Positions 25,332 to 57,968 are shown, counted from the stretch's first letter. The stretch: DNA of 64,000 bases from an uncultured Clostridia bacterium (GCA_947625835.1 CANQPY010000001.1:6763-70762); one strand, 5' to 3'. A program made the numbers and translations. The notes: generated by a model from the sequence alone, not told the origin.

Positions 25332-26981
25332 ATGGGTAGGAAACCTAAACAAATACCTCAAGAATCATTATGGGGTGAAGAATTTAATTTACCACCACCT
25401 CAAGAAGAAGTAAAAAAAGTATTGAAAAAAGTAAATGATAAAACAGATGCCCAAAAAATCAAATCTAAATTAACACCACTATCAGAGAAAATAGAAATTA
25501 TTTCCCAAAATGTACATAAAGTATTAGGCCATTACAAAGACCAAATGGTAGTAATTAGGGATAAAGAAACCTTCCATAATTACATTAGTGCGGCTATTGA
25601 GCAAGGAATAATTGCTATAGATACTGAAACAGACAATACAGTTGATACAGTGGCTTGTACTTTAATGGGTTTGGTTATATATACTCCAGGCCAAAAAAAT
25701 GGATATGTGCCTGTACACCATGTAGATTATGTAACAAATGAACTACTCCCAAACCAACTAACAGAAAAAGATATAAGAGAAGAACTAAACAGATTATTAG
25801 ACAATAACACATATATAATAATGCACAACGCGATATTCGATATTCAAGTTATTTATACTACATGTGGTGTTTTCCTTCCATGCCACTGGGATACAATGGT
25901 GGGCGCAAGATTATTAAATGAGAATGAAAAATCATCAGGCTTAAAATATCAATATATAGATAAAATTGACCCTAACCAGCAAAAATATTCGATTGAGGAA
26001 CTATTTGAAGGCTTATCATATGCTATTTTTCCTCCAGAATTGTTTGCATATTATGCCTCAACTGATGGATATATGACCTATAAACTATATGAATATCAGG
26101 TAGAAGCATTTAAGGACCCAGAACAAGCAGGAATGTTTAGGATATTCAGAGAAACAGAAATGAATATCATTCCTATCTTGGCCAAAATGCAATTAAAAGG
26201 TGTAGCTTTTGACCACGATTATCAAGCACGACTATCTAAAAAATATAATAAAATATATGAAGAATGTGATGCTTTAGTAATGGAAGAACTACACAAATTT
26301 GATGATATAGTAGCCAAATGGAGATTAACACCAGAGGCTAATTACAAACCTCTCAATAGAAAGGGGGATGGGTTTAATAAATCCAAAAATGAGCAATTAG
26401 AAGATCCAATTAGTGCAGATTCACCCACGCAACTAGCAATATTGCTATATGACATATTAAAAGCACCTGTAGTATCTAAAGATAAGCCAAGAGGTACAGG
26501 GGTAGAAGAACTAAAAGCTTTACAAGCCAAGCTAAATTTACCTCTAATAGATCTCATATTAAAGAAAAGAAATATTCAAAAATTACTAAATACATTTGTA
26601 GATAAACTACCTGGAGATGTAAGTAAAGTGGATGATAGAGTTCATGCAAGCTTCGGTTCTGTCATGACTGACACGGGCCGTTTCAACTCTTCATCGCCTA
26701 ATTTGCAAAATATTCCCGCTAAGAATAAAGAGATTCGTTCAGTTTTTTGTGCAGGTAGAGCACAAGAAATAGAAAAAATATTTGATGGTTTCTTACATCT
26801 ATATGATTATGATGAAGTAGAAACCCAAAGAGGTTGGGTAAAAGCAAAAGATCTAAAAACAACAGATTCATTGGTAGTAGAAGATGGCATCCTTAAAATT
26901 GCGTCTATTAGAGATCTAAATGGTATAATTCAAGTGTTCCCAGAAGAGGAAGAAAATAAAGGAGTGGAACATGCAGCATAA
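25332..26981 (+). CDS. polA: Family A DNA polymerase, N-terminal part (3'-5' exonuclease, thumb, start of palm) with a Hint-like C-terminal extension
   Basis: 'IDTET', 'HNAIFD', 'YASTD', 'TGRFNSSSPNLQNIP', 'EIRSVFCA'. Confidence 0.9.
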   Translation: MGRKPKQIPQESLWGEEFNLPPPQEEVKKVLKKVNDKTDAQKIKSKLTPLSEKIEIISQNVHKVLGHYKDQMVVIRDKETFHNYISAAIEQGIIAIDTETDNTVDTVACTLMGLVIYTPGQKNGYVPVHHVDYVTNELLPNQLTEKDIREELNRLLDNNTYIIMHNAIFDIQVIYTTCGVFLPCHWDTMVGARLLNENEKSSGLKYQYIDKIDPNQQKYSIEELFEGLSYAIFPPELFAYYASTDGYMTYKLYEYQVEAFKDPEQAGMFRIFRETEMNIIPILAKMQLKGVAFDHDYQARLSKKYNKIYEECDALVMEELHKFDDIVAKWRLTPEANYKPLNRKGDGFNKSKNEQLEDPISADSPTQLAILLYDILKAPVVSKDKPRGTGVEELKALQAKLNLPLIDLILKKRNIQKLLNTFVDKLPGDVSKVDDRVHASFGSVMTDTGRFNSSSPNLQNIPAKNKEIRSVFCAGRAQEIEKIFDGFLHLYDYDEVETQRGWVKAKDLKTTDSLVVEDGILKIASIRDLNGIIQVFPEEEENKGVEHAA

Positions 26982-27024
26982 AATAAAAATTAGAAAACCA
27001 GAAAAGAAACTAGTTGGGGGTGAT
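26971..27024 (+). CDS. polA: Exon 1 of the DNA polymerase C-terminal subunit (MQHKIKIRKPEKKLVGGD)
   Basis: GGAG RBS 6 nt before ATG 26971; joins 27295 to restore motif A 'LVGGDFSQLE'. Confidence 0.85.
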
Positions 27025-27294
27025 TAAATGAAGTCCCTATGTGTAGAGATATGCATAGGTATCCCATTGAATTGCTGGAAACTCCTAACGTAAAGCCGAG
27101 GACAACCAGCAGCCAAGCCTCTTTACTGAGGAAGGTTCAACGACTATCTCGCAAGAGAGTAGAAAGTAAGTACTTTCGAAGTGGTGGGTATCCATAATAA
27201 ATGGATAAAGATATAGTCTAAACACCTGTGAAAATAGGTGGGGATAAAAATAATTATCCCATTATAGTGTAACGAACTATAATAAATGCATGTG
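27025..27294 (+). ncRNA. Group I self-splicing intron (270 nt, no ORF)
   Basis: 5' exon ends in U and intron ends in G. IGS GAAGUC pairs with exon GAU and UUC. Conserved elements AATTGCTGGAAA, AACCAGCAGCC, TTCAACGACTA, AAGATATAGTC; P7 is GACTA 27142-46 / TAGTC 27214-18. Removal restores the frame. Confidence 0.92.
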
Positions 27295-28398
27295 TTCTCT
27301 CAACTAGAAGTAAAAACTGCAGTCTATAGTTCCAATGATCCTGACATGCGTAAGACATATGAAGATGGTCTAGACTTGTATTCATTAGTTGGTTCCATGG
27401 CATATAATAAAAAATATGAAGAATGCTTGGAATTTTATCCTGAAGGAACTGAACTAGAAATAGAAGGTAAAAAAATAGTTTGCGGGCGAAAAGAAATAAC
27501 TAACGAAATTGGAAAAAAATATCGTCAATCTTCAAAATCTATTCTGATAGGTAGTATATATCAAAGAGGTGTTCCCTCTATTGCTGAACAAATAAAGAAA
27601 ACCCCAGAAGAAACAAAAGAAATAATGGATAATTTCTACAAGGGTTTTCCTACCATGACTAAATGGTTTGAGGATAGTAAGAAATTTGCTTTAAAATATG
27701 GATACATGGATAATGCGGTTGGCAGAAGAAGAAGACTGCCTGCAGCATTGCTCCCCAAATATTCCATTACTACCTCAGTAACATCAGGTTCAGAAGGTTT
27801 TAATCCATTACTAGGGTGCAGCAACAAAATAGATACCACTTTAATTGATAAATATAGAAAAAAATTAGAAGAAAGAGAATTCATATCTGCTAAAGATTAT
27901 GAAGAGATTAAAAAGCAGGCAAAAGCTGAAGGTGTGGAGATTCACAATAATGGTGGACTGATAGCACAGGCGTTGAGGCAGTGTGTAAATTTCCAAGCTC
28001 AGAGCTTGGGCGCGGATATAGTCAAATTCGCAATGATTTTAGCAGATAAAGATCCAATTCTTAAAGATCTTGGTTTTGAAATGTTAATCCAAGTCCATGA
28101 TGAGCTGATTGGTGAATGCCCTGCAGAAAATGCAGATAAAGTAGCAAAAAGATTATCAGAATTAATGTCCTCAACTGCGGAAAAAATGACAGATAATATT
28201 CCTTTTCCGGTAGATTGTTATGAAGTAAATAATTGGTATGAAGATGAATTAAATACTTCTCTTCAAACACTGATGATGCATCATAAAGAACTATCTCAAG
28301 AAGACTTATATAAATTAGCATGTGAAGAACACCAAGAATTACTTCCAGAAGCTATCCATGATGTAATATTTGAGGGAAAAGAATTAAGAATTTCTTAG
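27295..28398 (+). CDS. polA: Exon 2 of the DNA polymerase C-terminal subunit (motifs A, B, C)
   Basis: 'FSQLE', 'RQSSKSILIGSIY', 'GRRRRLP', 'NFQAQS', 'QVHDEL'. Confidence 0.9.
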   Translation, partial: FSQLEVKTAVYSSNDPDMRKTYEDGLDLYSLVGSMAYNKKYEECLEFYPEGTELEIEGKKIVCGRKEITNEIGKKYRQSSKSILIGSIYQRGVPSIAEQIKKTPEETKEIMDNFYKGFPTMTKWFEDSKKFALKYGYMDNAVGRRRRLPAALLPKYSITTSVTSGSEGFNPLLGCSNKIDTTLIDKYRKKLEEREFISAKDYEEIKKQAKAEGVEIHNNGGLIAQALRQCVNFQAQSLGADIVKFAMILADKDPILKDLGFEMLIQVHDELIGECPAENADKVAKRLSELMSSTAEKMTDNIPFPVDCYEVNNWYEDELNTSLQTLMMHHKELSQEDLYKLACEEHQELLPEAIHDVIFEGKELRIS

Positions 28399-28416
28399 TT
28401 TCTTAGAGAAATATTG

Positions 28417-28426
28417 TGCTAGATTA
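28417..28426 (+). promoter_or_regulatory. Putative phage late-promoter motif (TGCTAgATTA variant)
   Basis: One mismatch to TGCTAAATTA, which recurs intergenically at 35100, 36894 and 51050. Confidence 0.5.
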
Positions 28427-28456
28427 CATGTACAATAATTTAACAAGGAGTTATCT

Positions 28457-28618
28457 ATGGATAAAAGACTTATTAATTTTGAAATAGATGAGGAACTAAG
28501 AAAGAAAATAAAGAAAGAAGCGTATGATTTAGATTTATCTATTTCTGCAGTACTTAGGCATATCATAGAAAATTATTTTAATGCTAAGGAAGAGAAAGAT
28601 GAGAGTGTCAGGATTTGA
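28457..28618 (+). CDS. Ribbon-helix-helix protein (not in ORF track): MDKRLINFEIDEELRKKIKKEAYDLDLSISAVLRHIIENYF...
   Basis: AAGGAG RBS; beta-strand 'INFEI' plus two helices; paralogs at 35141 and 51090. Confidence 0.8.
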   Translation: MDKRLINFEIDEELRKKIKKEAYDLDLSISAVLRHIIENYFNAKEEKDESVRI

Positions 28619-30539
28619 AGCGCTTGTAGATAGGATAACCAAAGAAGAATTATACCAATATGTAGTGGTAGAACGCCATACCAATAGAGAAGCAAAACAA
28701 CATTTTAATATTGGGTCTAGTGATACTCTTCTGAAACTTTTAAAATATTATGGGTTAAAAAAACCCACGAAGAAAGAAATATTACTTACCAAGGCATCAA
28801 AGGAAGAACTTTACCAATATTATATAGTTGAAAACCATACATTTAAGGAGTGCATAGAAAAATTCAATTTGGGTAGTTTCCCACAACTTAAAAAACTATG
28901 TAACTACTACAATATTGTTAAAAATGAGCCTATAGAAGAGATAATAAAAAGAGTACCTAAAAATGAAATAATTAGATATTATATAGAAGAAAAACACAGC
29001 CATGATGAAACTCTTGAATATTTTAATTTAGGTGCTGATGCTTTTTATTATCTTTTAAAGCTATATGATATAGTTAAAGAAAGATTCAATTGGGGAAAAT
29101 TTCAAAATAAACCCACAAAAGAAGCATTATATAATTTATATGTTGTACAAAATAAAACAGCGATAGATATATCCGCAGAATATAACATAAGTAAAGGATT
29201 AATTATTCGACTTCTCAAAGAATATGGTATAAGCTTAAAAACCATGTCAGAAAATGTCAGGTTGGGTAGAGAAAAAGTTTATAAATTATATGGATCTAAA
29301 GAAAATTACTGTAAAGCAACAAACAATAAAGTACAGCAAACTATGCTAAAAAAGTATGGTTTTAATACATATTCTCAGATGCCTGATTATAATGATAGAG
29401 TTAAATCAACTAACTTGAAAAAATATGGCGTAGAGTACTATACCCAATCTCAAGAGAATAGAGATAAAATTAGTGAAAAACTAAAAGAAAAAATTAATGA
29501 ATTAGGGTATGCAAAACTAAGTCAAGCCTCATTAGATGAAAAATTGCTCAAATTACTATATAATGAAGAGGAATCTGTAAAATTCCTAAATACATTTAAA
29601 GAACCCCCCACACCATTTCAACTTCAACAACAATTTAATTGTGGACAAACAGTTATAAGCCATTGGATAGAAAGATGCAATTTACAACCCTATGTAAGCT
29701 ATGTGGTAAGCAACCCTGAAAAAGAAATAGAAGAATATCTAAAATCCCTAAATGTTTGTTACCAAATGCACAGTAGGCTTACTTTAGATAGTAAGAAAGA
29801 GCTAGATTTTTATCTGCCCGACTACAATATAGGTATCGAATTTAATGGTACTTATTGGCATTCAAGTTTGATTAAAGATAAAAATTACCATTATAATAAA
29901 TCAATAGAGGCTGAAACTAAAGGAATAAGAATAATTCATATTTGGGAGTATGAGTGGGAAGATTCAAAACAACGTGAGAAAATATTATCTCTCCTAAAGA
30001 TAGCATGTAATAAAGTAAATACAAAAATTTACGCACGTAATTGTACAATTAAAGAAATTACAAATAGAGAAGCAAAACCTTTTAACGAAGCCAACCATTT
30101 ACAGGGGCATAGAAATGCCCAAGTAACCTATGGTTTATTTTATAATGATAGATTAGTACAACTAATGTCCTTTAGTAGAACTAGGTATAATAAAAACCTA
30201 ACTGGTGGTAATGATTGGGAAATAATCAGAGGATGTCCGGCAAGCAACAACATAGTTGTTGGTGGTGTAAGTAAGCTATTTAAACATTTTCTTAAAGAAT
30301 ACAATCCAGATCATGTTTTTAGTTACTGTGATTTCAATAAGTTCGATGGTAGAGGCTATGAAGCAATTGGTATGAAATTTGCAGGGTATACTGGACCAGA
30401 TATGAAATGGTTACTACAAAATGGCCAGGTAGTTTCTAGACAGCCTTCAAAGCATAAAGAACTGAAAGAGATCTCTAAAGCTCAGCTTTGGGGGGCAGGC
30501 AGTAAAAAATATATGTGGGAGAAACCTACGCAGAACTAA
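28599..30539 (+). CDS. Free-standing homing-type endonuclease (N-terminal helical repeats, Vsr/PD-(D/E)XK domain, C-terminal accessory domain)
   Basis: Four 'KEELYQYYIVENH'-type repeats, 'KKYG' repeats, 'ELDFYLPDYNIGIEFNGTYWH', 'IHIWEYEW'. Confidence 0.8.
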   Translation: MRVSGFEALVDRITKEELYQYVVVERHTNREAKQHFNIGSSDTLLKLLKYYGLKKPTKKEILLTKASKEELYQYYIVENHTFKECIEKFNLGSFPQLKKLCNYYNIVKNEPIEEIIKRVPKNEIIRYYIEEKHSHDETLEYFNLGADAFYYLLKLYDIVKERFNWGKFQNKPTKEALYNLYVVQNKTAIDISAEYNISKGLIIRLLKEYGISLKTMSENVRLGREKVYKLYGSKENYCKATNNKVQQTMLKKYGFNTYSQMPDYNDRVKSTNLKKYGVEYYTQSQENRDKISEKLKEKINELGYAKLSQASLDEKLLKLLYNEEESVKFLNTFKEPPTPFQLQQQFNCGQTVISHWIERCNLQPYVSYVVSNPEKEIEEYLKSLNVCYQMHSRLTLDSKKELDFYLPDYNIGIEFNGTYWHSSLIKDKNYHYNKSIEAETKGIRIIHIWEYEWEDSKQREKILSLLKIACNKVNTKIYARNCTIKEITNREAKPFNEANHLQGHRNAQVTYGLFYNDRLVQLMSFSRTRYNKNLTGGNDWEIIRGCPASNNIVVGGVSKLFKHFLKEYNPDHVFSYCDFNKFDGRGYEAIGMKFAGYTGPDMKWLLQNGQVVSRQPSKHKELKEISKAQLWGAGSKKYMWEKPTQN

Positions 30540-30604
30540 CCCCAGAACAAATAAGGGGAGTGTTAAGCGGAGAAATAAATGGTCTCTGGAATGGATTGTC
30601 TTAA
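30521..30604 (+). pseudogene. Displaced remnant of a DNA polymerase C-terminus
   Basis: ETYAELTPEQIRGVLSG...* aligns by eye with the polymerase end EEHQELLPEAIHDVIFEG*. Confidence 0.55.
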
Positions 30605-35056: not shown

Positions 35057-35140
35057 ATAAAAGAAAACTAAAGAAAATAAGAGAAGTCAAAAGGTAATGT
35101 GCTAAATTAGATGAAAATGCCTTTTGAAGGAGATAATAAA

Positions 35141-35302
35141 ATGGATAAACATGCAGTAAACTTTGAACTTCCCGAAAATATTTTCCTTCAGCTTAAACAA
35201 TTAGCAGAAGATAATGATAGAAGTATCGCTTCTCAAATAAGAACAATCATTATCTCCTACTTGAAGGAGAATAATAGTGACGCACCAGGAATTCAAAACT
35301 AA
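35141..35302 (+). CDS. Ribbon-helix-helix protein
   Basis: 'VNFELPE...LKQLAEDNDRSIASQIRTII'; preceded by TGCTAAATTA (35100) and AAGGAG. Confidence 0.75.
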   Translation: MDKHAVNFELPENIFLQLKQLAEDNDRSIASQIRTIIISYLKENNSDAPGIQN

Positions 35303-36893: not shown

Positions 36894-36903
36894 TGCTAAA
36901 TTA
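36894..36903 (+). promoter_or_regulatory. Putative late-promoter motif TGCTAAATTA
   Basis: Recurring intergenic motif, reminiscent of the T4 late promoter TATAAATA. Confidence 0.5.
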
Positions 36904-37014: not shown

Positions 37015-37608
37015 ATGATTCTTAGAAACAATGAAGATTTAAAAAAACTACTTTGTAGTAAAGAGAGAATCCCTGTAAACAAAATCACATTTGAACCTTT
37101 CCGTAAAGCATTTGCTGATGTTACACATAGCATGTATGATGATATTTTTGACTACTATGAGGATGATGCTTATACTTACGATGGTGATCTTAGAGCTGCA
37201 TATAAATTTAAAGAAGAAGATTTTGACATTAACAAATTTGTTATTCATTGGGAAGATGAAGATGAGGGGTTGTTTATGTACCCCAAATACACTACAAGTA
37301 GAAGATTAATAGTCAACTTTCTTGATGATTGGCTTGATGAAAACTACTATGTAACAGATTATGAGTTTAGTGTAGGTAATGGAGAATATGAGGATGCTGG
37401 TATAGTATTTGATACCGGTTATCATAAGTGGTTTTCAGAAGAGGGAAAATTCGATATTGATGATGAGAGTATGTTTTTAAATAATGTGAAGTATCTCAAA
37501 TCTAATCCTGATCTTCTTACAGTGTTTGGATTAAAATCTTCTGACCTCCAACTAAGTGTAAGCGAATATTACAGAGAACAACTAAGCAGAAGAAGATATT
37601 TAAAATAA
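37015..37608 (+). CDS. Acidic hypothetical protein
   Basis: ORF with RBS. Confidence 0.6.
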   Translation: MILRNNEDLKKLLCSKERIPVNKITFEPFRKAFADVTHSMYDDIFDYYEDDAYTYDGDLRAAYKFKEEDFDINKFVIHWEDEDEGLFMYPKYTTSRRLIVNFLDDWLDENYYVTDYEFSVGNGEYEDAGIVFDTGYHKWFSEEGKFDIDDESMFLNNVKYLKSNPDLLTVFGLKSSDLQLSVSEYYREQLSRRRYLK

Positions 37609-49872: not shown

Positions 49873-49904
49873 ATAGGAAAGAAATAAAAGGAAGAGAACT
49901 AATT

Positions 49905-50339
49905 ATGGAAGAAGATGGCCCGTCGTTTCCGTCGACGCTAAGCAAAACTAGAAGAGCCTATTTTAAAGCTGCAGAGAGTATATCTACTCTTAGCAATCAC
50001 AGGTGCAGAGTAGGATGTGTAGTGGTTAATAAGCACAAGATTATCAGTTCTGGACACAATAGTGCAAATAAGACCCATGCATTCCAAGCTAGACTAGATA
50101 AAAGAACCTTTGGGTGCGAATGTGCAGGATTTCTCCATGCAGAAACAGATGCTCTTCTCCCTCTAATTAAAAATAGAGTTGATCTTTCTAATGCATCTAT
50201 TTATGTGTATAGAGAGAAAAAAGACAATACTAAGGGCATGGCCAGGCCATGCCCTAGATGTATGTCCATAATAAAAAGTTGTGGTATCAAATATATTAAT
50301 TATTCTACAGCAGATGGATTTGCAGAAGAGGTAATTTAA
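49905..50339 (+). CDS. Zinc-dependent cytidine/deoxycytidylate deaminase-family protein
   Basis: 'HAE' and 'PCPRC'. Confidence 0.85.
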   Translation: MEEDGPSFPSTLSKTRRAYFKAAESISTLSNHRCRVGCVVVNKHKIISSGHNSANKTHAFQARLDKRTFGCECAGFLHAETDALLPLIKNRVDLSNASIYVYREKKDNTKGMARPCPRCMSIIKSCGIKYINYSTADGFAEEVI

Positions 50340-50341
50340 AA

Positions 50342-50866
50342 ATGTTTAGAAAAAATAAGAAAGAAATTGTTAAGTTAGGAGTGCTTGAAGGTACAGATTG
50401 TGACCACCTTAAATGGAAGAGCAAAAACAAAGCAATGAGTTGGAATTTTGCTTATTATATGCCTGTACTAATGAGAGATGCCCTTAGAGAAATGGCTTCA
50501 AACCTTCATAGTTGTCCTAGTTGGCTAGCAGAAGAATTTGATGATGATGTAGATGCTGCGTGTGTAGAGTGGAGTAAAATACTAAATAAAATTGCAGATA
50601 AATTTGATTATGCTTCCAGAATATGTAATACTTTAGATTTTCTATCTAAGGAAGATCAAATGAAATTGGATGAATACTATTCAAAAGATCACTATGTTGA
50701 CTATAAAGAAAATAAAGATGGAAGTGTTCAATATTCTTTAGAACCTATTCCTGATTATATAGAAGAAATCCATAAGAAAGAAGATGTAATTGCAGAAGAT
50801 ATGCAGAATAAATTAAAAGAGGCGCTCCAGGAACTTGGAGAAATTTGGTACGACATATGGGATTAA
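50342..50866 (+). CDS. Hypothetical protein
   Basis: 'WSKILNKIADKF...LGEIWYDIWD' resembles common phage hypotheticals. Confidence 0.55.
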   Translation: MFRKNKKEIVKLGVLEGTDCDHLKWKSKNKAMSWNFAYYMPVLMRDALREMASNLHSCPSWLAEEFDDDVDAACVEWSKILNKIADKFDYASRICNTLDFLSKEDQMKLDEYYSKDHYVDYKENKDGSVQYSLEPIPDYIEEIHKKEDVIAEDMQNKLKEALQELGEIWYDIWD

Positions 50867-51009
50867 ACAATATTGTAATTGTTGGGGGAGGCCCAGCAGG
50901 TATTTTTTGCGCATACGAATCAGTACAGCAGGGGTATAGTGGAAAAATCACAATCCTTGAAATGGGCAACCTAATTGAAAATAGAAAATGCCCCAAGGAT
51001 AGAATATGA
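50857..51009 (+). pseudogene. Orphaned 5' fragment of an FAD-dependent oxidoreductase
   Basis: MGLNNIVIVGGGPAGIFCAYE...ENRKCPKDRI* is homologous to the N-terminus of 52638..54023. Confidence 0.85.
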
Positions 51010-51089
51010 AGAAAAATTAAGAATTCTTAATAAAAATGAAGAAATTTATTGCTAAATTATGTGTAATAAATTTCTGAAGGAATACTAAA

Positions 51090-51248
51090 ATGAAAAAAAT
51101 ATTAAATTTTGAAGTAGAAGAAGAAGTCATCCTTCAGTTAAAGAAGATAGCGAAAGAAGATGAAAGAAATCTTTCAGCAGAAATTAGATTTATTATTCTT
51201 TCCTATCTAAAGGACAGAATGAAGAATGGCAAATTTGAAGAACAATAA
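51090..51248 (+). CDS. Ribbon-helix-helix protein (not in ORF track): MKKILNFEVEEEVILQLKKIAKEDERNLSAEIRFII...
   Basis: Preceded by TGCTAAATTA (51050) and AAGGA; paralog of 28457 and 35141. Confidence 0.8.
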   Translation: MKKILNFEVEEEVILQLKKIAKEDERNLSAEIRFIILSYLKDRMKNGKFEEQ

Positions 51249-52641
51249 AAACATACCAAGGCTAATATCTATAATAAGTGAGCAGGAACTATTTAATTAC
51301 TGGATAAAAGAAAAGCACACCCCAAAAGAAACCCAAGAGCATTTTAATATAAGCTGTTGGGAGTTTAATCTATTATCTAACTATTACCATATAAAACAAA
51401 GAGGAAATTCTCTTAATAATTATATAAGATCAGTATCTAGAGAAAATTTATATAGTTACTATTTTGAAGAAAACCACTCCGCAACAGATACCATGAAATA
51501 TTTTAACATAGATGAACACATCCTTGAACAACTATGTAGATATTATGATTTACCAGATAAACGATCCTACAATAAAGATAAAATTTTAAAAGATTTAGAT
51601 GAATTAGAAGTAGTTAATTACTATAAAAACCACTCCTATTATAACACTATAGATCATTTTAATTTACGTACATGCTCGCATGTACTAGATACAATTATCG
51701 CAAAGTATGGTATACATAAAAGAGATGTTAAAAAGAAAAAATTTGAATCTTTTGATGAAATTATTGCTAGAGTATCTAAAGAAGAATTTTACCAATATTA
51801 TATTGTAGAGAATCATGGTTATAGTGAAACTATAAAGCATTTTAATCTCGGCAATCTTGATAAGGTACGTAATTATTATGGACTACATAAAAGACAATTT
51901 ACTAAACATAATTTTATAAATATTGAACAATTTAAAAAATTATATACTAAAGAAGAATTTATAAATTATTACATAATCCAAAACCATAGATTATTTGAAA
52001 CTGCTGAACATTTTAATATATCTCAAGATACTTGTAAATTATTAATAAGAGAATATGATGTAAGTAAGAAAAAGAAAGAATATTCCCATCTTTCTATGGT
52101 AAATTATAAACAAACTTGTCTTAACAAATACGGGGTTGAAAATTCTCTACAACTTAGAAAATGTAGAGATAATAATGAGCCATACCAAAGCGAACCCAAT
52201 AAAAAATTTCAAAAATTATTGGAAGTTAAAGGATTGACAAAAGATGAAACATTTATTTCAGAATTTGCATTAGAGGGCAAAAGATATGATTTTAAAATAG
52301 GTAATTATTTAGTAGAAGTTAATCCTTGGGCTACACATAATATTACTTGGAAAAAATACTGTTTATCAAATAAAAATAGCTGGTCTAATTATATGTATAA
52401 AGAATACCATAGAGAAAAATCTTTATTAGCTCAAAAATATGGTTATAAATGCATATGTGTATGGGATTGGAGTGATAAAGAAAAAATAATAGAAAATATA
52501 CTAAACAATACATTAAATATTAAAGATACTGGAGAAATAAAACTACACTTATTTAATTATAAAACAAAAGAGATAGTATCAAGTACTGGTCCGTATGTTG
52601 TAGAAATTTGGGATGATGGGTTTGAATTGGAGGTAATATGA
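51226..52641 (+). CDS. Free-standing homing-type endonuclease with N-terminal helical repeats
   Basis: Five 'KEEFYQYYIVENH'-type repeats, 'NKYGVEN', 'RYDFKIGNYLVEVN', 'ICVWDW'. Confidence 0.75.
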   Translation: MANLKNNKNIPRLISIISEQELFNYWIKEKHTPKETQEHFNISCWEFNLLSNYYHIKQRGNSLNNYIRSVSRENLYSYYFEENHSATDTMKYFNIDEHILEQLCRYYDLPDKRSYNKDKILKDLDELEVVNYYKNHSYYNTIDHFNLRTCSHVLDTIIAKYGIHKRDVKKKKFESFDEIIARVSKEEFYQYYIVENHGYSETIKHFNLGNLDKVRNYYGLHKRQFTKHNFINIEQFKKLYTKEEFINYYIIQNHRLFETAEHFNISQDTCKLLIREYDVSKKKKEYSHLSMVNYKQTCLNKYGVENSLQLRKCRDNNEPYQSEPNKKFQKLLEVKGLTKDETFISEFALEGKRYDFKIGNYLVEVNPWATHNITWKKYCLSNKNSWSNYMYKEYHREKSLLAQKYGYKCICVWDWSDKEKIIENILNNTLNIKDTGEIKLHLFNYKTKEIVSSTGPYVVEIWDDGFELEVI

Positions 52642-54023
52642 ATAATATAATAATTGTTGGCGGTGGGAATGCTGCACTATTCTGTGCTTATGAACTAATT
52701 GAAAAAGGATTTAAGGGACAAGTCTCTATATTTGAAGAAGGAAAAGATTTAAAATATAGAGATTGCCCAAAATCTAAAGCTGGCAAATGTATTCATTGTA
52801 ATATATGTAATATCACAGCTGGAGTGGCAGGTTGTGGTCCCAAAACGGATGCCAAGGTCTCATTATCTACAGCAGTGGGTGGTTATCTTCCCGAAATTTT
52901 AGGTGAAGAAAAAACCCAATCACTTATTAATTATATGGATTCTATATTACTTAAGTTTGGAGCAGACCCTAAAGTTGAAGGCCTTGAAGATAATGAAGAA
53001 ATAAGAGATATTAAGAGAAAATCAATTGCTGCGGGTCTTAAATTAGTAGATGATCCTATCAGGCATTTAGGTACAGAAAAATCTACAGAACTATACCAAC
53101 GCCTTGAAGAATATTTAATATCAAAGAATATTAATATTATACCCAACTCTAAAGTAACCGATCTAATTATTAAAAACAATAAATGTTCTGGGATGATTGT
53201 AAATGGTTCTACTGCCTATGTTGCGGATAAAATAATTGTAGCTGTGGGTAGAAGAGGCGCTTCATGGTTGGAAAATCAATGCAAATTACACAACATAAAT
53301 AAATTGCCAGGTACTATGGATATTGGTGTTCGTGTAGAGTGCAGAAATGAGATTATGGAAAAAATTAATAAGTATTTTTACGAGGGAAAATTTATTGGCT
53401 ATCCAGCCCCCTTTAGGGACAAAGTAAGAACATTCTGCCAAAACCCAGGGGGCTTTGTAGCGCAAGAGAACTATGAGGGAAACCTTGCTCTAGTTAATGG
53501 GCATTCTTATAAGGAATTAAAATCAAAAAATACCAACCTCTCAATTTTGGTAAGCCATAGTTTTACTACGCCTTTCGATCAACCTCTTCTTTACGCCCAG
53601 AAAATAGGTGAATTGACTAACATGCTGGCAAATGGAAGCATATTAGTTCAAAGATATGGTGATATCATATCTGGTAAGAGAACTTGGCAAAATGAGCTAG
53701 ATAAATCCAATATTAAACCCACATTAATAGATGCTGTAGCAGGCGATATAACAGCAGCAATGCCTTACAGAACAATGACTGATATTGTAAATTTCATTCA
53801 AATGTTGGATAAAGTAGTTCCCGGGTTTGCTGCATATGAAACTCTCCTTTATAGTCCTGAGATAAAATTCTATTCAAATAGAGTAGCAATGGATGAACAT
53901 CTAAATACAAATATTCAAAATCTTTATTGTATAGGGGATGGCGCAGGAGTTACAAGAGGAATAGCTCAATCTGCAGCTAATGGAATTCAATGCGCTAGAG
54001 AAATTATGGGTGAGGTAGAATAA
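52638..54023 (+). CDS. NAD(P)/FAD-dependent oxidoreductase (COG2509-like)
   Basis: 'IVGGG', 'RHLGTE', 'DIGVRVE', 'VRTFCQNPGG', 'PEIKFYS', 'GDGAGVTRG'. Confidence 0.88.
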   Translation: MNNIIIVGGGNAALFCAYELIEKGFKGQVSIFEEGKDLKYRDCPKSKAGKCIHCNICNITAGVAGCGPKTDAKVSLSTAVGGYLPEILGEEKTQSLINYMDSILLKFGADPKVEGLEDNEEIRDIKRKSIAAGLKLVDDPIRHLGTEKSTELYQRLEEYLISKNINIIPNSKVTDLIIKNNKCSGMIVNGSTAYVADKIIVAVGRRGASWLENQCKLHNINKLPGTMDIGVRVECRNEIMEKINKYFYEGKFIGYPAPFRDKVRTFCQNPGGFVAQENYEGNLALVNGHSYKELKSKNTNLSILVSHSFTTPFDQPLLYAQKIGELTNMLANGSILVQRYGDIISGKRTWQNELDKSNIKPTLIDAVAGDITAAMPYRTMTDIVNFIQMLDKVVPGFAAYETLLYSPEIKFYSNRVAMDEHLNTNIQNLYCIGDGAGVTRGIAQSAANGIQCAREIMGEVE

Positions 54024-54559
54024 TGGATAAAAATTGCTATGGTTTGATTATTACTGTAGATGGTAAACAAGAATATCTTTATGAGAATCCTTATGATTAT
54101 ATTGAGAGAATAGGGTGCAAACCTATTATTGATGATTATTTTAAAGTAGAATATTATGACGAATTACTACCTATTAATAATCCAACTTTCATAAACTCAT
54201 TAAAAATCAATTTTAATATCATGTTTTACAGTAGGGATGGTGAAAAAAGCGAAGAAAAAGAAAACACTCTAATGACCCAGTTCTGTAATATATATGCTTT
54301 TAATTCGCCTGTACAACCTTTAAGTTGTATAGATTATATAGAAGGGTTAGTATGTGATAATGCAATTATATTACCCAAAAATGATAGATTTATGTACGAA
54401 GAAGATAAAGAATATTTACAGCATCTATTGAACAACATGGATGAATATTTACCTAAAGATAAAGAAAAGTACATGCTTGAAAACATGAATGATGAAGAGC
54501 TTGAAAATATGGGAGTAGATGCAGTTAAATACCACGAATTAATTGGAGATAAAGAATGA
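54023..54559 (+). CDS. 'CYGL' family protein A (DUF3846-like, candidate immunity)
   Basis: Paralog of 55164 and 58013 ('CYGL.I.V.GK...YENPY.YI'). Confidence 0.6.
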   Translation: MDKNCYGLIITVDGKQEYLYENPYDYIERIGCKPIIDDYFKVEYYDELLPINNPTFINSLKINFNIMFYSRDGEKSEEKENTLMTQFCNIYAFNSPVQPLSCIDYIEGLVCDNAIILPKNDRFMYEEDKEYLQHLLNNMDEYLPKDKEKYMLENMNDEELENMGVDAVKYHELIGDKE

Positions 54560-55101
54560 TATATGATGAAGTTTGGGAGGCATTAAAACAATTAGATGAA
54601 AATGCATATTTTAACCCAGAAGGTTTAATATCTCATGATAAACATGGGCCCAGATTGAATGCAAGAAACTCGCAGGAATATAATGAAATAACAAACGAAA
54701 TAACTAGTAGTCCTGCTACTTATATTCAGGGAGACTTAGGAGAAACTGTTCAGGGTTACATTACCCAAGGTGGTATAAAAGTTAAATTTAAACAATATGG
54801 AGATTCCTATATTATTGGTGCATATTCAGGTGATGCTGTTACAGGAACTGCAATTACTTGTTATAGTAAGAAATTAAAAAACATTCTTCAAGATGCAGAT
54901 CCTTATAGATTTTATAGAAAATCAAATAAAGATGATGATTACAGATATAGATGTGATTTAGATGGTAAATTCAGAGGTTTAAAATATTTTAATGAGCACC
55001 CCGAACTTCACGAAGATACATCCGAAGAAAGAATAAAAGAAATTAAAAGAAAATTATATAAAAGAGAAAAACTCGGTAGATTCAACACTGATAAGGAGTA
55101 A
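54556..55101 (+). CDS. Toxin-like protein A with VWEALKQLDE leader
   Basis: Paralog of 55615 and 58429; 'H.KH', 'GY...G..VKF', 'G..IT.Y'. Confidence 0.6.
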   Translation: MIYDEVWEALKQLDENAYFNPEGLISHDKHGPRLNARNSQEYNEITNEITSSPATYIQGDLGETVQGYITQGGIKVKFKQYGDSYIIGAYSGDAVTGTAITCYSKKLKNILQDADPYRFYRKSNKDDDYRYRCDLDGKFRGLKYFNEHPELHEDTSEERIKEIKRKLYKREKLGRFNTDKE

Positions 55102-55163
55102 ATACGATATATTATATAAATGAATTTTAATCTATTAGAAAACTACACATTGAGGATAGAATA

Positions 55164-55604
55164 ATGAATAAGAAATGCTATGGACTAGATATCCCAGTAA
55201 AGGGTAAGCCTCATTATATTTATGAAAATCCTTATAGATATATTGAAAATTCGGGATGTAAACCAATTAATGACTATTTTGGTTTTCAAAGTTTTGATGA
55301 AGATGAAGGAATTGCTTTAAGAAATCCTTTATTTGTTTTTGAAATGAATGATATAGATTACAATATGTTGTTTTATAGCCCTAGTGGAGAGCGTTGGTGG
55401 GATTCGAAGGTTACAGTTAAAAATAAACTTGCAAGTGCTTTTTGTAATGCTTATTTTCTTGAGGTTCCTCCTTATGCAGAAGAATTTGAAAAAGAATGTG
55501 TAGAAGTAGGCTTAATTCTCCTACCTAAAAGAGATAGATTTTTTACTAAAGAAAATAAATTACAATTAAAAAATTATTTAAAAGACCTAGATTGGTTTAT
55601 GTAG
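55164..55604 (+). CDS. 'CYGL' family protein B
   Basis: Paralog of 54023. Confidence 0.6.
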   Translation: MNKKCYGLDIPVKGKPHYIYENPYRYIENSGCKPINDYFGFQSFDEDEGIALRNPLFVFEMNDIDYNMLFYSPSGERWWDSKVTVKNKLASAFCNAYFLEVPPYAEEFEKECVEVGLILLPKRDRFFTKENKLQLKNYLKDLDWFM

Positions 55605-55614
55605 GAGATACTAG

Positions 55615-56163
55615 ATGATAGATAGTAAAATATGGGAAGAATTAAAAAGGTTAAATGAACTTGCAACATTTTCACCAGATAATCTTGGGGATCATAGAAA
55701 GCATGAACCAGAATATGGTCTTGAGAATGATAAGCAATATCAGGAGTTTACTGATACTTTAACAAAATATCCTGCAGTTCCTATTGGGAAAGGAGACATT
55801 ACGGATATTCAAGGGTATGTGGCTCAAAGTGGAGCTAGGGTTAAATTTGTTCAGATTAGAAATGATATTTATGCTTTGGCCGCATATAAAGGAAAAATAA
55901 ATGGTCAAACAGCCCTTACTAACTACCCGAAAAAACTTTTTAATATATTAAAAGATGCAGATCCTTACGCTTTTTATATGCAAAGCGAAAAAGAAGATGA
56001 CTATAGATATAGGAGTGATTTGGATGGTAGGTTCGAGGGTCTCAAATTCTTTGATATCCACCCTGAATACCATAGAGGTACTTCAGAAGAAAAAATAAGA
56101 GAGATCAGAAGAATGTTATACAAAAGAGAAAAACTTGGCAGATTTAACACTGATAAGGAGTAG
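55615..56163 (+). CDS. Toxin-like protein B with IWEELKRLNE leader
   Basis: Paralog of 54556. Confidence 0.6.
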   Translation: MIDSKIWEELKRLNELATFSPDNLGDHRKHEPEYGLENDKQYQEFTDTLTKYPAVPIGKGDITDIQGYVAQSGARVKFVQIRNDIYALAAYKGKINGQTALTNYPKKLFNILKDADPYAFYMQSEKEDDYRYRSDLDGRFEGLKFFDIHPEYHRGTSEEKIREIRRMLYKREKLGRFNTDKE

Positions 56164-56167
56164 CCAT

Positions 56168-57475
56168 ATGGAACGTATAGCTTTTATAGGTGCAGGCCCA
56201 AGTACTATAGGTGCTGCATTAAAATTAATAGATAATAAATATGATGGCGAAATTATAATTTTTGAAAAGGGAAATTCCTTAGACAATAGATTACCTTCAG
56301 AAGTTATAGAAGGATTTGCCGGTGCTGGATGTTTTTCAGACTGCAAACTCTCTAGTTCTCTTACCACAGGTTCTGTAATTCCCAATTTAACCCAAGAAGA
56401 ATTAGAAAAATATGAGCAAGAGATTTTAGATTACTTTAATAGATTTTCGCCAGATAAATTAGAATGGTCTCATACATCTTCTTTTGACACCCATACAACA
56501 AACTTAACTTTTGATATCCATAAAACACTACATGTGGGTTCAGATAAGGGAAGAGAAATTTTCCACAAAATGGAGAAATTTATTACTTCCCAACCCAATG
56601 TTAGGATTTTATTTGGGGCAGAAGTTGAAGATGTTGTAGATATTCATGATTTTTCAGGATTTAAACATCCCTTTATTGTTTATTATTATAGTAAAGAAAA
56701 TAAATGGTCTATTGAAGTAGATAAAGTAATTGTAGCTACAGGACAAAAAAATACACTGCCTGGCAAATTAATTAAGAGATTTAAATTAGCTACAACACCC
56801 AGAGCATTACAATTAGGCGTAAGAGTTGTAGATGAAATGAATTCCCAATATGAAGAGATAATTAAGGCAAATTATGACTTTAAGTTTGTAAAAGAATATA
56901 ATTACAAAAATGATGTAAAAGTTAAAGTAAGAACGTTTTGCTGTAACTCAGGTAATGCCCATGTGTGTGCTGAAAAAGCTTCAGAAGGGTTTGTTTGTTT
57001 TAATGGGCATGCTTATAAAGTACCAGACCCTAATAACCATAGTGTTAATTATGGGATTATGTGTGAAGTATCAGGGTTAAAAAAGTACAATTCTAAAGAA
57101 AAACAAATAGAGTTGATGAAAAATATCAACAATAAAGAACATTGGGCTGAAGATAATTTTAGTAATAATGATGAAGTAAGACCTGTTAGAGAATTACTAA
57201 AGGGATTCAAACATCTTAAAGGATATTACCCCAAGGTAGTAATAGATTCCTTAACAGATTTTGTATGGGAACTAAATAAACTTGTAGATTTGAGTAAAGC
57301 AAAATATTTGTACCCAGAAGTAAAATTAAATGAAGGAAAAACAATTCAAACAACAAAGTGGGAATCATCACTTAAAGGATTATACTTTATTGGAGATTGT
57401 AATATTACCAGAGGGATTGTTAAAGCATTCTTGTCAGGATTACAAGTTGCTGAGGGATTGATAAATGCCACTTAA
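56168..57475 (+). CDS. Second NAD(P)/FAD-dependent oxidoreductase (COG2509-like)
   Basis: 'IGAGP', 'GFAGAGCFSDCKL', 'LGVRV', 'VRTFC', 'PEVK', 'GD..TRG'. Confidence 0.85.
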   Translation: MERIAFIGAGPSTIGAALKLIDNKYDGEIIIFEKGNSLDNRLPSEVIEGFAGAGCFSDCKLSSSLTTGSVIPNLTQEELEKYEQEILDYFNRFSPDKLEWSHTSSFDTHTTNLTFDIHKTLHVGSDKGREIFHKMEKFITSQPNVRILFGAEVEDVVDIHDFSGFKHPFIVYYYSKENKWSIEVDKVIVATGQKNTLPGKLIKRFKLATTPRALQLGVRVVDEMNSQYEEIIKANYDFKFVKEYNYKNDVKVKVRTFCCNSGNAHVCAEKASEGFVCFNGHAYKVPDPNNHSVNYGIMCEVSGLKKYNSKEKQIELMKNINNKEHWAEDNFSNNDEVRPVRELLKGFKHLKGYYPKVVIDSLTDFVWELNKLVDLSKAKYLYPEVKLNEGKTIQTTKWESSLKGLYFIGDCNITRGIVKAFLSGLQVAEGLINAT

Positions 57476-57968
57476 CGTAGGAAAAATATTTGAGCAAAAA
57501 TTTAAGGAAGATTATTTAAAATCCTTCCCAAATGCTTTATGTATGAGGCTTTACGATAATATGTCTGGTTACTACCACATATCAAATTACGCTGATTTTA
57601 TTTGTTATGATAGTGAAAGAATGTATATGCTAGATTGTAAAGCACATGAGGGTAGTTCCTTTCCATTTCAGGCATTTTCCCAATTTGATGGGTTATTATC
57701 ACTAGAACATGTCCCAAACCTTATTACAGGCATTATCTTATGGTTATATGATAAAGATAAGGTATTCTTTGTACCCACAATATCTATAGATAAGATGAAA
57801 AAAGATGGGATAAAATCATTCAATCCAGACAAAGTACCAAAATATAAATACTACTATTTAAATATCCCATCAGTAAAATTAAGAACATACATGAACAGTG
57901 ATTATACAGTATTGAAGAGTGTACCAGGAAATAAAGAATTGAGAGACTGGGGAACTAGAAATAGTTGA
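57465..57968 (+). CDS. RecU-like Holliday junction resolvase
   Basis: 'GKIFEQ', 'ADFI', 'LDCKA', 'QFDGL'. Confidence 0.75.
   Translation: MPLNVGKIFEQKFKEDYLKSFPNALCMRLYDNMSGYYHISNYADFICYDSERMYMLDCKAHEGSSFPFQAFSQFDGLLSLEHVPNLITGIILWLYDKDKVFFVPTISIDKMKKDGIKSFNPDKVPKYKYYYLNIPSVKLRTYMNSDYTVLKSVPGNKELRDWGTRNS

Follow-up and report, generated by a model that had tools for sequence, protein, structure and literature searches.

A leader-RHH-nuclease cassette between an apparently native oxidoreductase gene start and a foreign allele on a putative jumbo-phage contig

We analysed a window of 64,000 nucleotides (nt), by which we mean the whole stretch C1:6763-70762 (GCA_947625835.1, CANQPY010000001.1) of the 198,913-bp contig C1, which lies inside a 1.9-Mb genome bin (G000) of an uncultured Clostridia bacterium and which we read as a jumbo-phage contig binned together with a low-G+C bacterium. 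Within the window, the beginning of an oxidoreductase gene, here called the stub, stands apart from a complete gene of the same kind, and between the two lie a structured leader, a small ribbon-helix-helix (RHH) gene and the gene of a free-standing nuclease, together called the cassette (Table 1). A first-pass annotation had described this arrangement as an intron-free, self-repairing mobile cassette that splits the oxidoreductase gene and supplies a new 5' end, with a counterpart at polA. Its anatomy holds in our list of open reading frames (ORFs): the stub, the motif TGCTAAATTA (51050-51059, within the loop of the leader hairpin), the RHH gene, the nuclease gene and the complete oxidoreductase gene are all in place, the last coupled to the nuclease gene through an ATGA start/stop overlap. 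The ATG of the stub overlaps the stop of the gene at 50342-50866 (gene 50342), the same start overlap as in L025, a contig from a relative that lacks the cassette. The arrangement is intron-free as proposed: between 50300 and 54100 nothing matched Rfam at E <= 1, and the nuclease is encoded by a separate ORF with its own start beside a complete neighbour gene. Because the same Rfam search did detect introns at 27012-27240 and in L002 (C1:186347-190237), the intron search evidently works on this genome.

Table 1. Coordinates of the oxidoreductase locus and of related units, in window positions
Feature	Position	Strand	Evidence
Sister cassette behind polA: leader, RHH gene (28457-28618), 652-aa nuclease gene (28581-30539)	28379..30539	+	PHROG, leader alignment
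Native polA 3' stub, 24 codons + stop	30530..30604	+	22/23 residues identical to P0198 C-terminus
Third leader + RHH gene (35141-35302), no nuclease behind	35061..35302	+	leader alignments
Upstream resident gene, 174 aa, no family	50342..50866	+	76% aa identity to same-position gene in L025; ORF list
Oxidoreductase stub, 50-aa ORF: 47 native clade-A codons, 3 unrelated codons, stop	50857..51009	+	44/46 to P0018; L025 blastn
Cassette leader	51007..51089	+	alignments to two other RHH leaders of window
RHH gene, 52 aa	51090..51248	+	Arc-like PHROG E 3.8e-4; AF2; Foldseek; 23-nt overlap with nuclease gene
Free-standing nuclease, 471 aa	51226..52641	+	HTH_28, internal repeats, AF2 + Foldseek
Complete FAD-dependent oxidoreductase, 461 aa, clade B	52638..54023	+	Pfam PF07992, PF21688; trees; AU test
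Variable filler, lacking in L025: small-gene pair in two copies (54023-56163), oxr2 (56135-57475)	54023..57475	+	L025 comparison
Downstream resident gene, Holliday-junction-resolvase-like	57465..57968	+	phrog_843; 76% aa, 77% nt identity to L025; synteny resumes

In a search against the window's own ORFs, the stub aligned with the beginning of the complete gene at 48.9% identity over 47 residues (E 8.6e-15). A list of 120 homologues of the complete gene contained closer sequences, with P0018 leading over stub residues 1-46, P0017, P0019, P0020 and P0021 following at 81-89% identity, and the next best homologues at 54-68%. When the stub region was compared with L025 by blastn, the similarity (80% at the nucleotide level over 49906-50997) ended at the Lys47 codon of an invariant CPK motif. 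Nineteen of the differences between the stub and L025 are synonymous and five are non-synonymous, so the stub appears to have been under selection for most of its divergence from L025; one change places a Ser where 16/16 aligned homologues have Leu. A continuation of the homology past codon 48 after a deletion was considered and rejected, as it amounted to a single 8-mer match. By these comparisons the stub is the native 5' end of the phage's own oxidoreductase gene.

The complete gene has another origin over its entire length. The clade to which the stub belongs (clade A, P0017-P0021) is 85-91% identical internally and 66-69% identical to the window's complete gene, which is closest to P0003-P0016 (clade B), at up to 70% in its first 44 residues and up to 75% in the remainder. 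A full-length tree placed it within clade B with support of 100/99 (clade A, 100/100), and the body alone, with everything up to CPK removed, still grouped in clade B with an SH-aLRT support of 94. Forcing the body into clade A was rejected by an approximately unbiased (AU) test (delta lnL 82, p-AU 4e-8); the grouping tested was named after the first tree had been viewed, and is the one that the earlier self-repairing model predicts. Its product shares 65.6% of its residues with the L025 oxidoreductase, whereas the products of the flanking genes share 76-83% with theirs. The last ~50 residues are ~70% identical to clade A versus 56%, and a return to the native type by crossover near codon 415 was therefore considered as well; it was rejected because this likeness is far below that of clade-A members to one another over the same stretch (~91%, by manual count). 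Judged from sequence, then, the whole downstream gene is foreign, and not only its 5' end, and the compact self-repairing cassette of the first-pass annotation gives way to replacement of a whole allele, as it does at polA. Apart from its placement, the foreign oxidoreductase has a terminal branch of 0.5 changes per site, long beside the 0.02-0.3 of its clade, which suggests faster evolution. Three homologues (P0002, P0028 and P0031) are over-long and contain exact internal long repeats, and are probably assembly or gene-call errors.

The state of the locus lacking the cassette is found in L025, the 76-kb contig that carries P0021. It is syntenic with the window and contains an intact oxidoreductase gene exactly at the position of the stub, preceded in order by a clamp gene (57% amino-acid identity), a dCMP deaminase gene (83%) and the homologue of gene 50342. 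The homologue of the gene at 57465 begins 30 nt past the oxidoreductase stop, and 50998-57487 of the window takes the place of 1.27 kb of L025. No RHH gene and no nuclease gene were found across 14.4 kb of L025, and its genome gave no match to the window nuclease with this query. It had been predicted that relatives lacking the cassette would start as the 50857 version does, fused at CPK, which is what P0021 in its syntenic, intact setting does, and P0017-P0021 all share this start. The cassette was found in run X6, from another sample and another study (records 6 and 9 of the matches), in which one contig covers 49889-50454 and 50777-51487 at ~93% identity, taking in the stub, the leader, the RHH gene and the start of the nuclease gene, and a second contig covers 52449-53489, with the junction between the nuclease and complete genes, at ~94.5%. 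At one and the same locus the cassette is thus absent from one relative (L025) and present in another (X6).

All 14 of 14 more distant phage or viral loci have one intact oxidoreductase gene, with no second fragment and no nuclease. Against phage records, blastn with 49900-54600 gave two distant matches only, both inside the oxidoreductase gene, and tblastn with the window nuclease gave none. Scans of IMG/VR with the oxidoreductase and with gene 50342 returned no matches, and a scan with alignment A1 returned nine loci, all 53-61% identical to the window oxidoreductase and none syntenic. A metagenome scan with A1 yielded at least 80 loci, those listed all being at most 64% identical to P0018. 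A genome scan with P0021 yielded 80 loci, of which L025 (100%) was the only one looked into; the other 79, at 49-63%, are on contigs titled bacterial.

The nuclease gene encodes a protein with five helix-turn-helix (HTH) repeats (residues ~17-285), a Vsr/I-Bth0305I-like domain (~320-430) and a short beta tail. An AlphaFold2 (AF2) model of the nuclease domain has a pLDDT of 88.5, and its top Foldseek matches are 3r3p (I-Bth0305I; probability 1.00, E 4.6e-3) and 1vsr. With VIA, Z was 8.9 against I-Bth0305I (3r3p; root-mean-square deviation 2.6, 91/97 residues aligned) and 8.5 against Vsr (1cw0), barely higher than the best Z of 7-8 typically reached by models that have no clear Foldseek match. 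Both top structural matches belong to one fold family and span the entire nuclease domain. The near-invariant positions of the nuclease family are all present in the protein (12/12), including the conserved Glu, Asp (Y-D-F) and His (T-H-N), while the final Asp of the composite E-D-x-H-D motif was not identified. A profile search of PDB sequences with the nuclease alignment A2 gave one unrelated match and did not reach 3r3p. Among 1.84 billion clusters, the family is represented 730 times at E <= 1e-3 and 334 times at E <= 1e-10. By its predicted fold and its architecture the protein would fit a homing endonuclease, in line with the first-pass annotation. The 3' end of gene 50342 and that of the nuclease gene share a direct repeat (16/19), which was read as chance because the nuclease tail is conserved in P0122 and P0123.

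Sequence matches of the RHH protein are weak (Arc-like, RHH and DUF6364, from Pfam and PHROG, with none in NCBIfam), as are those of its two paralogues. Its AF2 model has a strand-helix-helix layout (pLDDT 80.4, helices at 11-23 and 28-45) with Arc and CopG as top Foldseek matches (probability 0.99-1.0, TM 0.6-0.8), and we presume that it is the repressor of the cassette. Some 80 nt upstream are common to all three RHH genes of the window. In the oxidoreductase cassette this leader contains a 13-bp hairpin (51040-51075), a GAAGGA ribosome-binding site and a perfect 16-nt palindrome (51016-51031) that was found in this copy of the leader. The sequence TGCTA(A/G)ATTA stands 40-41 nt before the ATG, inside the 13-bp hairpin, and 6 of the 13 pairs keep pairing through two-sided changes in one or more of the three sequences. 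Similarity to the polA-cassette leader begins at about 51007, ~10 nt past the end of the stub homology, with a score that 3 of 2000 shuffles reached. Because the leaders are ~70% conserved at the nucleotide level while the RHH proteins (31-38% identical) and the nucleases (about 26-29%) have diverged, the leader may be a constrained control element, which with three sequences is only suggestive. Two small genes follow the third leader-RHH unit, which may be a relic of a cassette, or leader and RHH gene may serve other uses as well. A fourth exact TGCTAAATTA lies in an intergenic position at 36894-36903; it is not followed by an RHH gene, and eight consecutive G stand farther downstream, before the gene at 37015-37608.

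The polA case, which the first-pass annotation had called a mirror image, proved to be a genuine parallel: a 24-codon polA tail stands behind the 652-residue nuclease, itself matched to the PHROG 'homing endonuclease' at E 4e-83. This tail overlaps the last 10 nt of the nuclease gene in another frame, and is of the same type as the tails of P0174 and P0175. Together with P0198, to whose C-terminus it is nearly identical, these proteins reach no more than 49-50% identity with exon 2 of the window's polA, and the working polA tail of the window matches P0156-P0159 and P0164 (66-92% identical). By these identities, the polA cassette lies between a foreign-lineage polA and a native terminal stub. 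In both cassettes the stub junctions are within ~10 nt of the cassette. P0121, a nuclease 95% identical to that of the oxidoreductase cassette, and P0175, a polA protein 50% identical to that of the window, are both listed with a longest contig of 197,829 bp; if one contig encodes both, this would hint at a phage that carries the oxidoreductase cassette together with a polA of the native type. The window's polA is also split by a group I intron at 27012-27240 (Rfam RF00028, 89 bits), with exons at 25332-26981 and 27286-28398.

To the right of the complete gene, the boundary of the replacement cannot be fixed from the relatives compared. The filler there ends in oxr2, a distant oxidoreductase paralogue. 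In a contig of run X5, position 50862 is joined to 56183 via 30 nt, placing gene 50342 directly before oxr2 with no clade-A or clade-B oxidoreductase, and in run X9 the foreign allele is followed by ~1 kb and then oxr2, with one small-gene pair fewer. The slot after gene 50342 thus holds alternative occupants. The small-gene pair (~146-178 aa plus ~181 aa) occurs at least five times in C1 (54023-56163, 58013-58998, ~81.3-82.2k and ~109.4-110k on the window scale), and it varies among relatives, L025 and X5 having no copies around oxr2 and the resolvase-like gene.

We consider it probable, at roughly 0.62, that free-standing homing-endonuclease cassettes drive whole-allele replacement at these loci and that the stub marks the cut site. 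This reading builds directly on the anatomy of the locus, on a stub of native and a complete gene of wholly foreign origin, on the presence and absence of the cassette among relatives, on the parallel at polA and on the fold of the nuclease. A donor phage would have carried the leader-RHH-nuclease cassette directly upstream of a clade-B oxidoreductase allele. During a mixed infection, the nuclease would have cut the resident clade-A allele near codons 47-48, at the invariant R-x-C-P-K motif, and the break would have been repaired from the donor. On the right side, recombination may have run through the gene or beyond; on the left, where matching homology was lacking, the broken end would have been joined within ~10 nt of the cassette leader, giving one homologous and one illegitimate junction. 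Such an event would leave the native 47 codons stranded behind gene 50342, with the cassette and a complete foreign allele in place of the rest. Around the break, 22 of 60 bases differ between the allele now resident and that of L025, so the resident allele would be expected to escape cutting. Expression of the nuclease is presumably kept down by the RHH protein, through the palindrome or the hairpin of the leader. The stub could also serve as a left homology arm, in which case the whole structure could home cleanly into clade-A genomes. As a broader and more tentative proposal, which we regard as possible and less than an even chance, a family of leader-RHH-Vsr-like cassettes of gut jumbo phages may, in place of clean insertion, replace whole alleles of replication and metabolic genes such as polA and the oxidoreductase gene, each invasion of an unrelated backbone leaving a stub at the cut site that later acts as a homology arm for homing into relatives of that backbone, with leader and RHH protein forming a switch that limits self-damage.

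A stub beside a foreign gene could have arisen with the nuclease as a mere passenger, if module shuffling or a deletion produced it, either from tandem alleles or through illegitimate recombination at a hypervariable spot. The main support for this explanation is that the interval is indeed a variable spot and differs independently among relatives, with the clade-A gene only in L025, oxr2 only in X5 and one pair fewer in X9. We nonetheless think it unlikely, given that both RHH-nuclease pairs of the contig (2/2) lie exactly between a native stub and a foreign allele, with junctions within ~10 nt of the cassette, and that recombination stimulated by nucleases is expected to leave nuclease genes at the boundaries of exchange (PMC10448857, in the passages on such boundaries). 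Very improbable, in our judgement, is a self-repairing cassette in which ~47 replacement codons are fused at CPK to a native body, on the pattern of mitochondrial mORF hybrids. Such a design is documented in mitochondria (PMC3630166, in its account of these hybrids), and the stub and the new start correspond to each other, each ending at CPK; yet the body is 66-69% identical to the stub's clade versus 81-96% for the stub, its union with clade A is rejected (p-AU 4e-8), and nowhere does the sequence cross back to the native type, the last ~50 residues leaning weakly to clade A. Nor do we expect, with any more confidence, that the RHH and nuclease genes form a toxin-antitoxin or a defence or exclusion module and not a mobile element. 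The small RHH gene does overlap the nuclease gene, as in type II toxin-antitoxin operons; against this, PADLOC matched 0/6 proteins at E <= 0.01 (nuclease and RHH protein included), the nuclease is a large multi-HTH protein whose best structural match is a homing endonuclease, and stubs and foreign alleles flank both cassettes. Finally, a contig from a metagenome bin, with a G+C content unlike the rest of that bin, might be a chimera, with two strains fused during assembly at the conserved 5' region. This has next to no chance of being correct, because the diverged X6 contigs, from another sample and study, bridge the same junctions at 93-95%, and the structure of stub and cassette must then be inherited.

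Several points weigh against replacement driven by the nuclease. The nuclease domain has no sequence-level match in Pfam, NCBIfam or PDB sequences. In a scan with alignment A3, no RHH gene was found beside distant relatives of the nuclease at any of four viral-contig loci (0/4), and one of the three leader-RHH units of the window has no nuclease. The interval 50342-57465 is variable for other reasons too, as shown by X5 and by the absence of the small-gene pairs and oxr2 from L025, and ordinary module shuffling could have produced the stub junction. That a donor had the nuclease linked to a clade-B allele is assumed, the end of the stub need not be the cut site, and the placement of P0121 and P0175 on one contig would follow only from the equal figure of 197,829 bp.

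The seg and mob genes of T4-like phages encode free-standing homing endonucleases that carry out intronless homing and marker exclusion. The cassettes described here resemble them in having an intergenic nuclease of patchy presence, swapped adjacent markers and a recombinase of the phage's own (see PMC2988022, PMC2790892 and PMC2330249), and differ in the Vsr/EDxHD-like fold, which is neither GIY-YIG nor HNH, as well as in the separate RHH gene, the conserved structured leader and the terminal stub of the replaced allele. With I-Bth0305I and the EDxHD enzymes, including those of the phage Hef type, they share an N-terminal DNA-binding part, a C-terminal Vsr-like nuclease and a phage setting (PMC3239194, in its description of these proteins). 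Unlike I-Bth0305I, the window nuclease has five HTH repeats versus two NUMOD motifs, is free-standing and not intron-borne, and has no sequence match to 3r3p.

A closer likeness in gene structure is offered by the fungal mitochondrial mORFs (Allomyces atp6; Glomus atp6, atp9, cox2 and nad3), where the end of a gene is duplicated next to an endonuclease ORF. There the native end persists as an unexpressed or orphan piece that is nearest to the genes of relatives, and the working copy is foreign (PMC3630166, in the parts that describe these loci). The native terminal piece retained beside the endonuclease ORF is matched here by 50857-50997 and 30530-30604. In the mORFs, however, foreign sequence is confined to the terminal piece, which is joined in frame to a native body, whereas here the whole gene is foreign; the host is a phage, the nuclease is of another family, and the stranded end is the 5' end for the oxidoreductase and the 3' end for polA. 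In ICP1 phages, nuclease genes likewise lie at the edges of exchanged segments; unlike here, the families are T5orf172 and HNH, and no stranded gene ends were found described in the portions of that paper bearing on these exchanges (Barth et al. 2023, PMC10448857). An RHH protein inside a nuclease-bearing selfish element is known from the Arc-type RHH of the IS605 family, a reported repressor (bioRxiv 10.64898/2026.09.24.754181, as far as its account of this protein goes), in that case in a TnpA/TnpB transposon, whereas the RHH role here is predicted. In the literature outside subscription journals, supplements excluded, we found no description of stubs beside free-standing phage nucleases or of an RHH partner for them, and nothing on DUF7487.

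If the proposed replacement is true, stubs would be natural footprints of homing-endonuclease cut sites, and selfish nucleases would have a route for swapping whole core-gene alleles between phages that are only distantly related. Mosaic boundaries in phage genomes, and their 'xenologous' replication genes, would thereby be accounted for, and single-gene phylogenies of such phages, for example those of polA or of auxiliary metabolic genes, could reflect nuclease traffic. With a target and an immune sequence both at hand, the locus would open to study an uncharacterised branch of Vsr-like nucleases whose DNA-binding array has five repeats; it also offers a candidate RHH/leader control element.

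The wider setting of the window bears on the nature of C1. Its G+C content is 32.9%, versus 23.5-33.3% for the other 85 contigs of the bin (most at 25-29%), and its genes include helicases, a DnaB-like helicase, the split polA, a sliding clamp and a dCMP deaminase. A UvsX-like recombinase and a resolvase-like protein are also encoded nearby on C1, these being recombination genes of the phage's own. Relatives of gene 50342 were found in 0/400 genomes of the bin's bacterial family, and C1 is therefore not a resident of that family as represented by the genomes searched. The contamination of the bin is 6.7%, of which the C1 phage may be part. Elsewhere on the contig, positions 1-239, 335-605 and 1495-2955 of L002 hold two group I introns, scoring 101 and 79 bits, together with a third Vsr-like nuclease. 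The latter has 486 residues with a Mom-like C-terminal part, has no RHH gene, and lies amid short ORFs resembling fragments of one interrupted gene, which we would guess to be a capsid gene.

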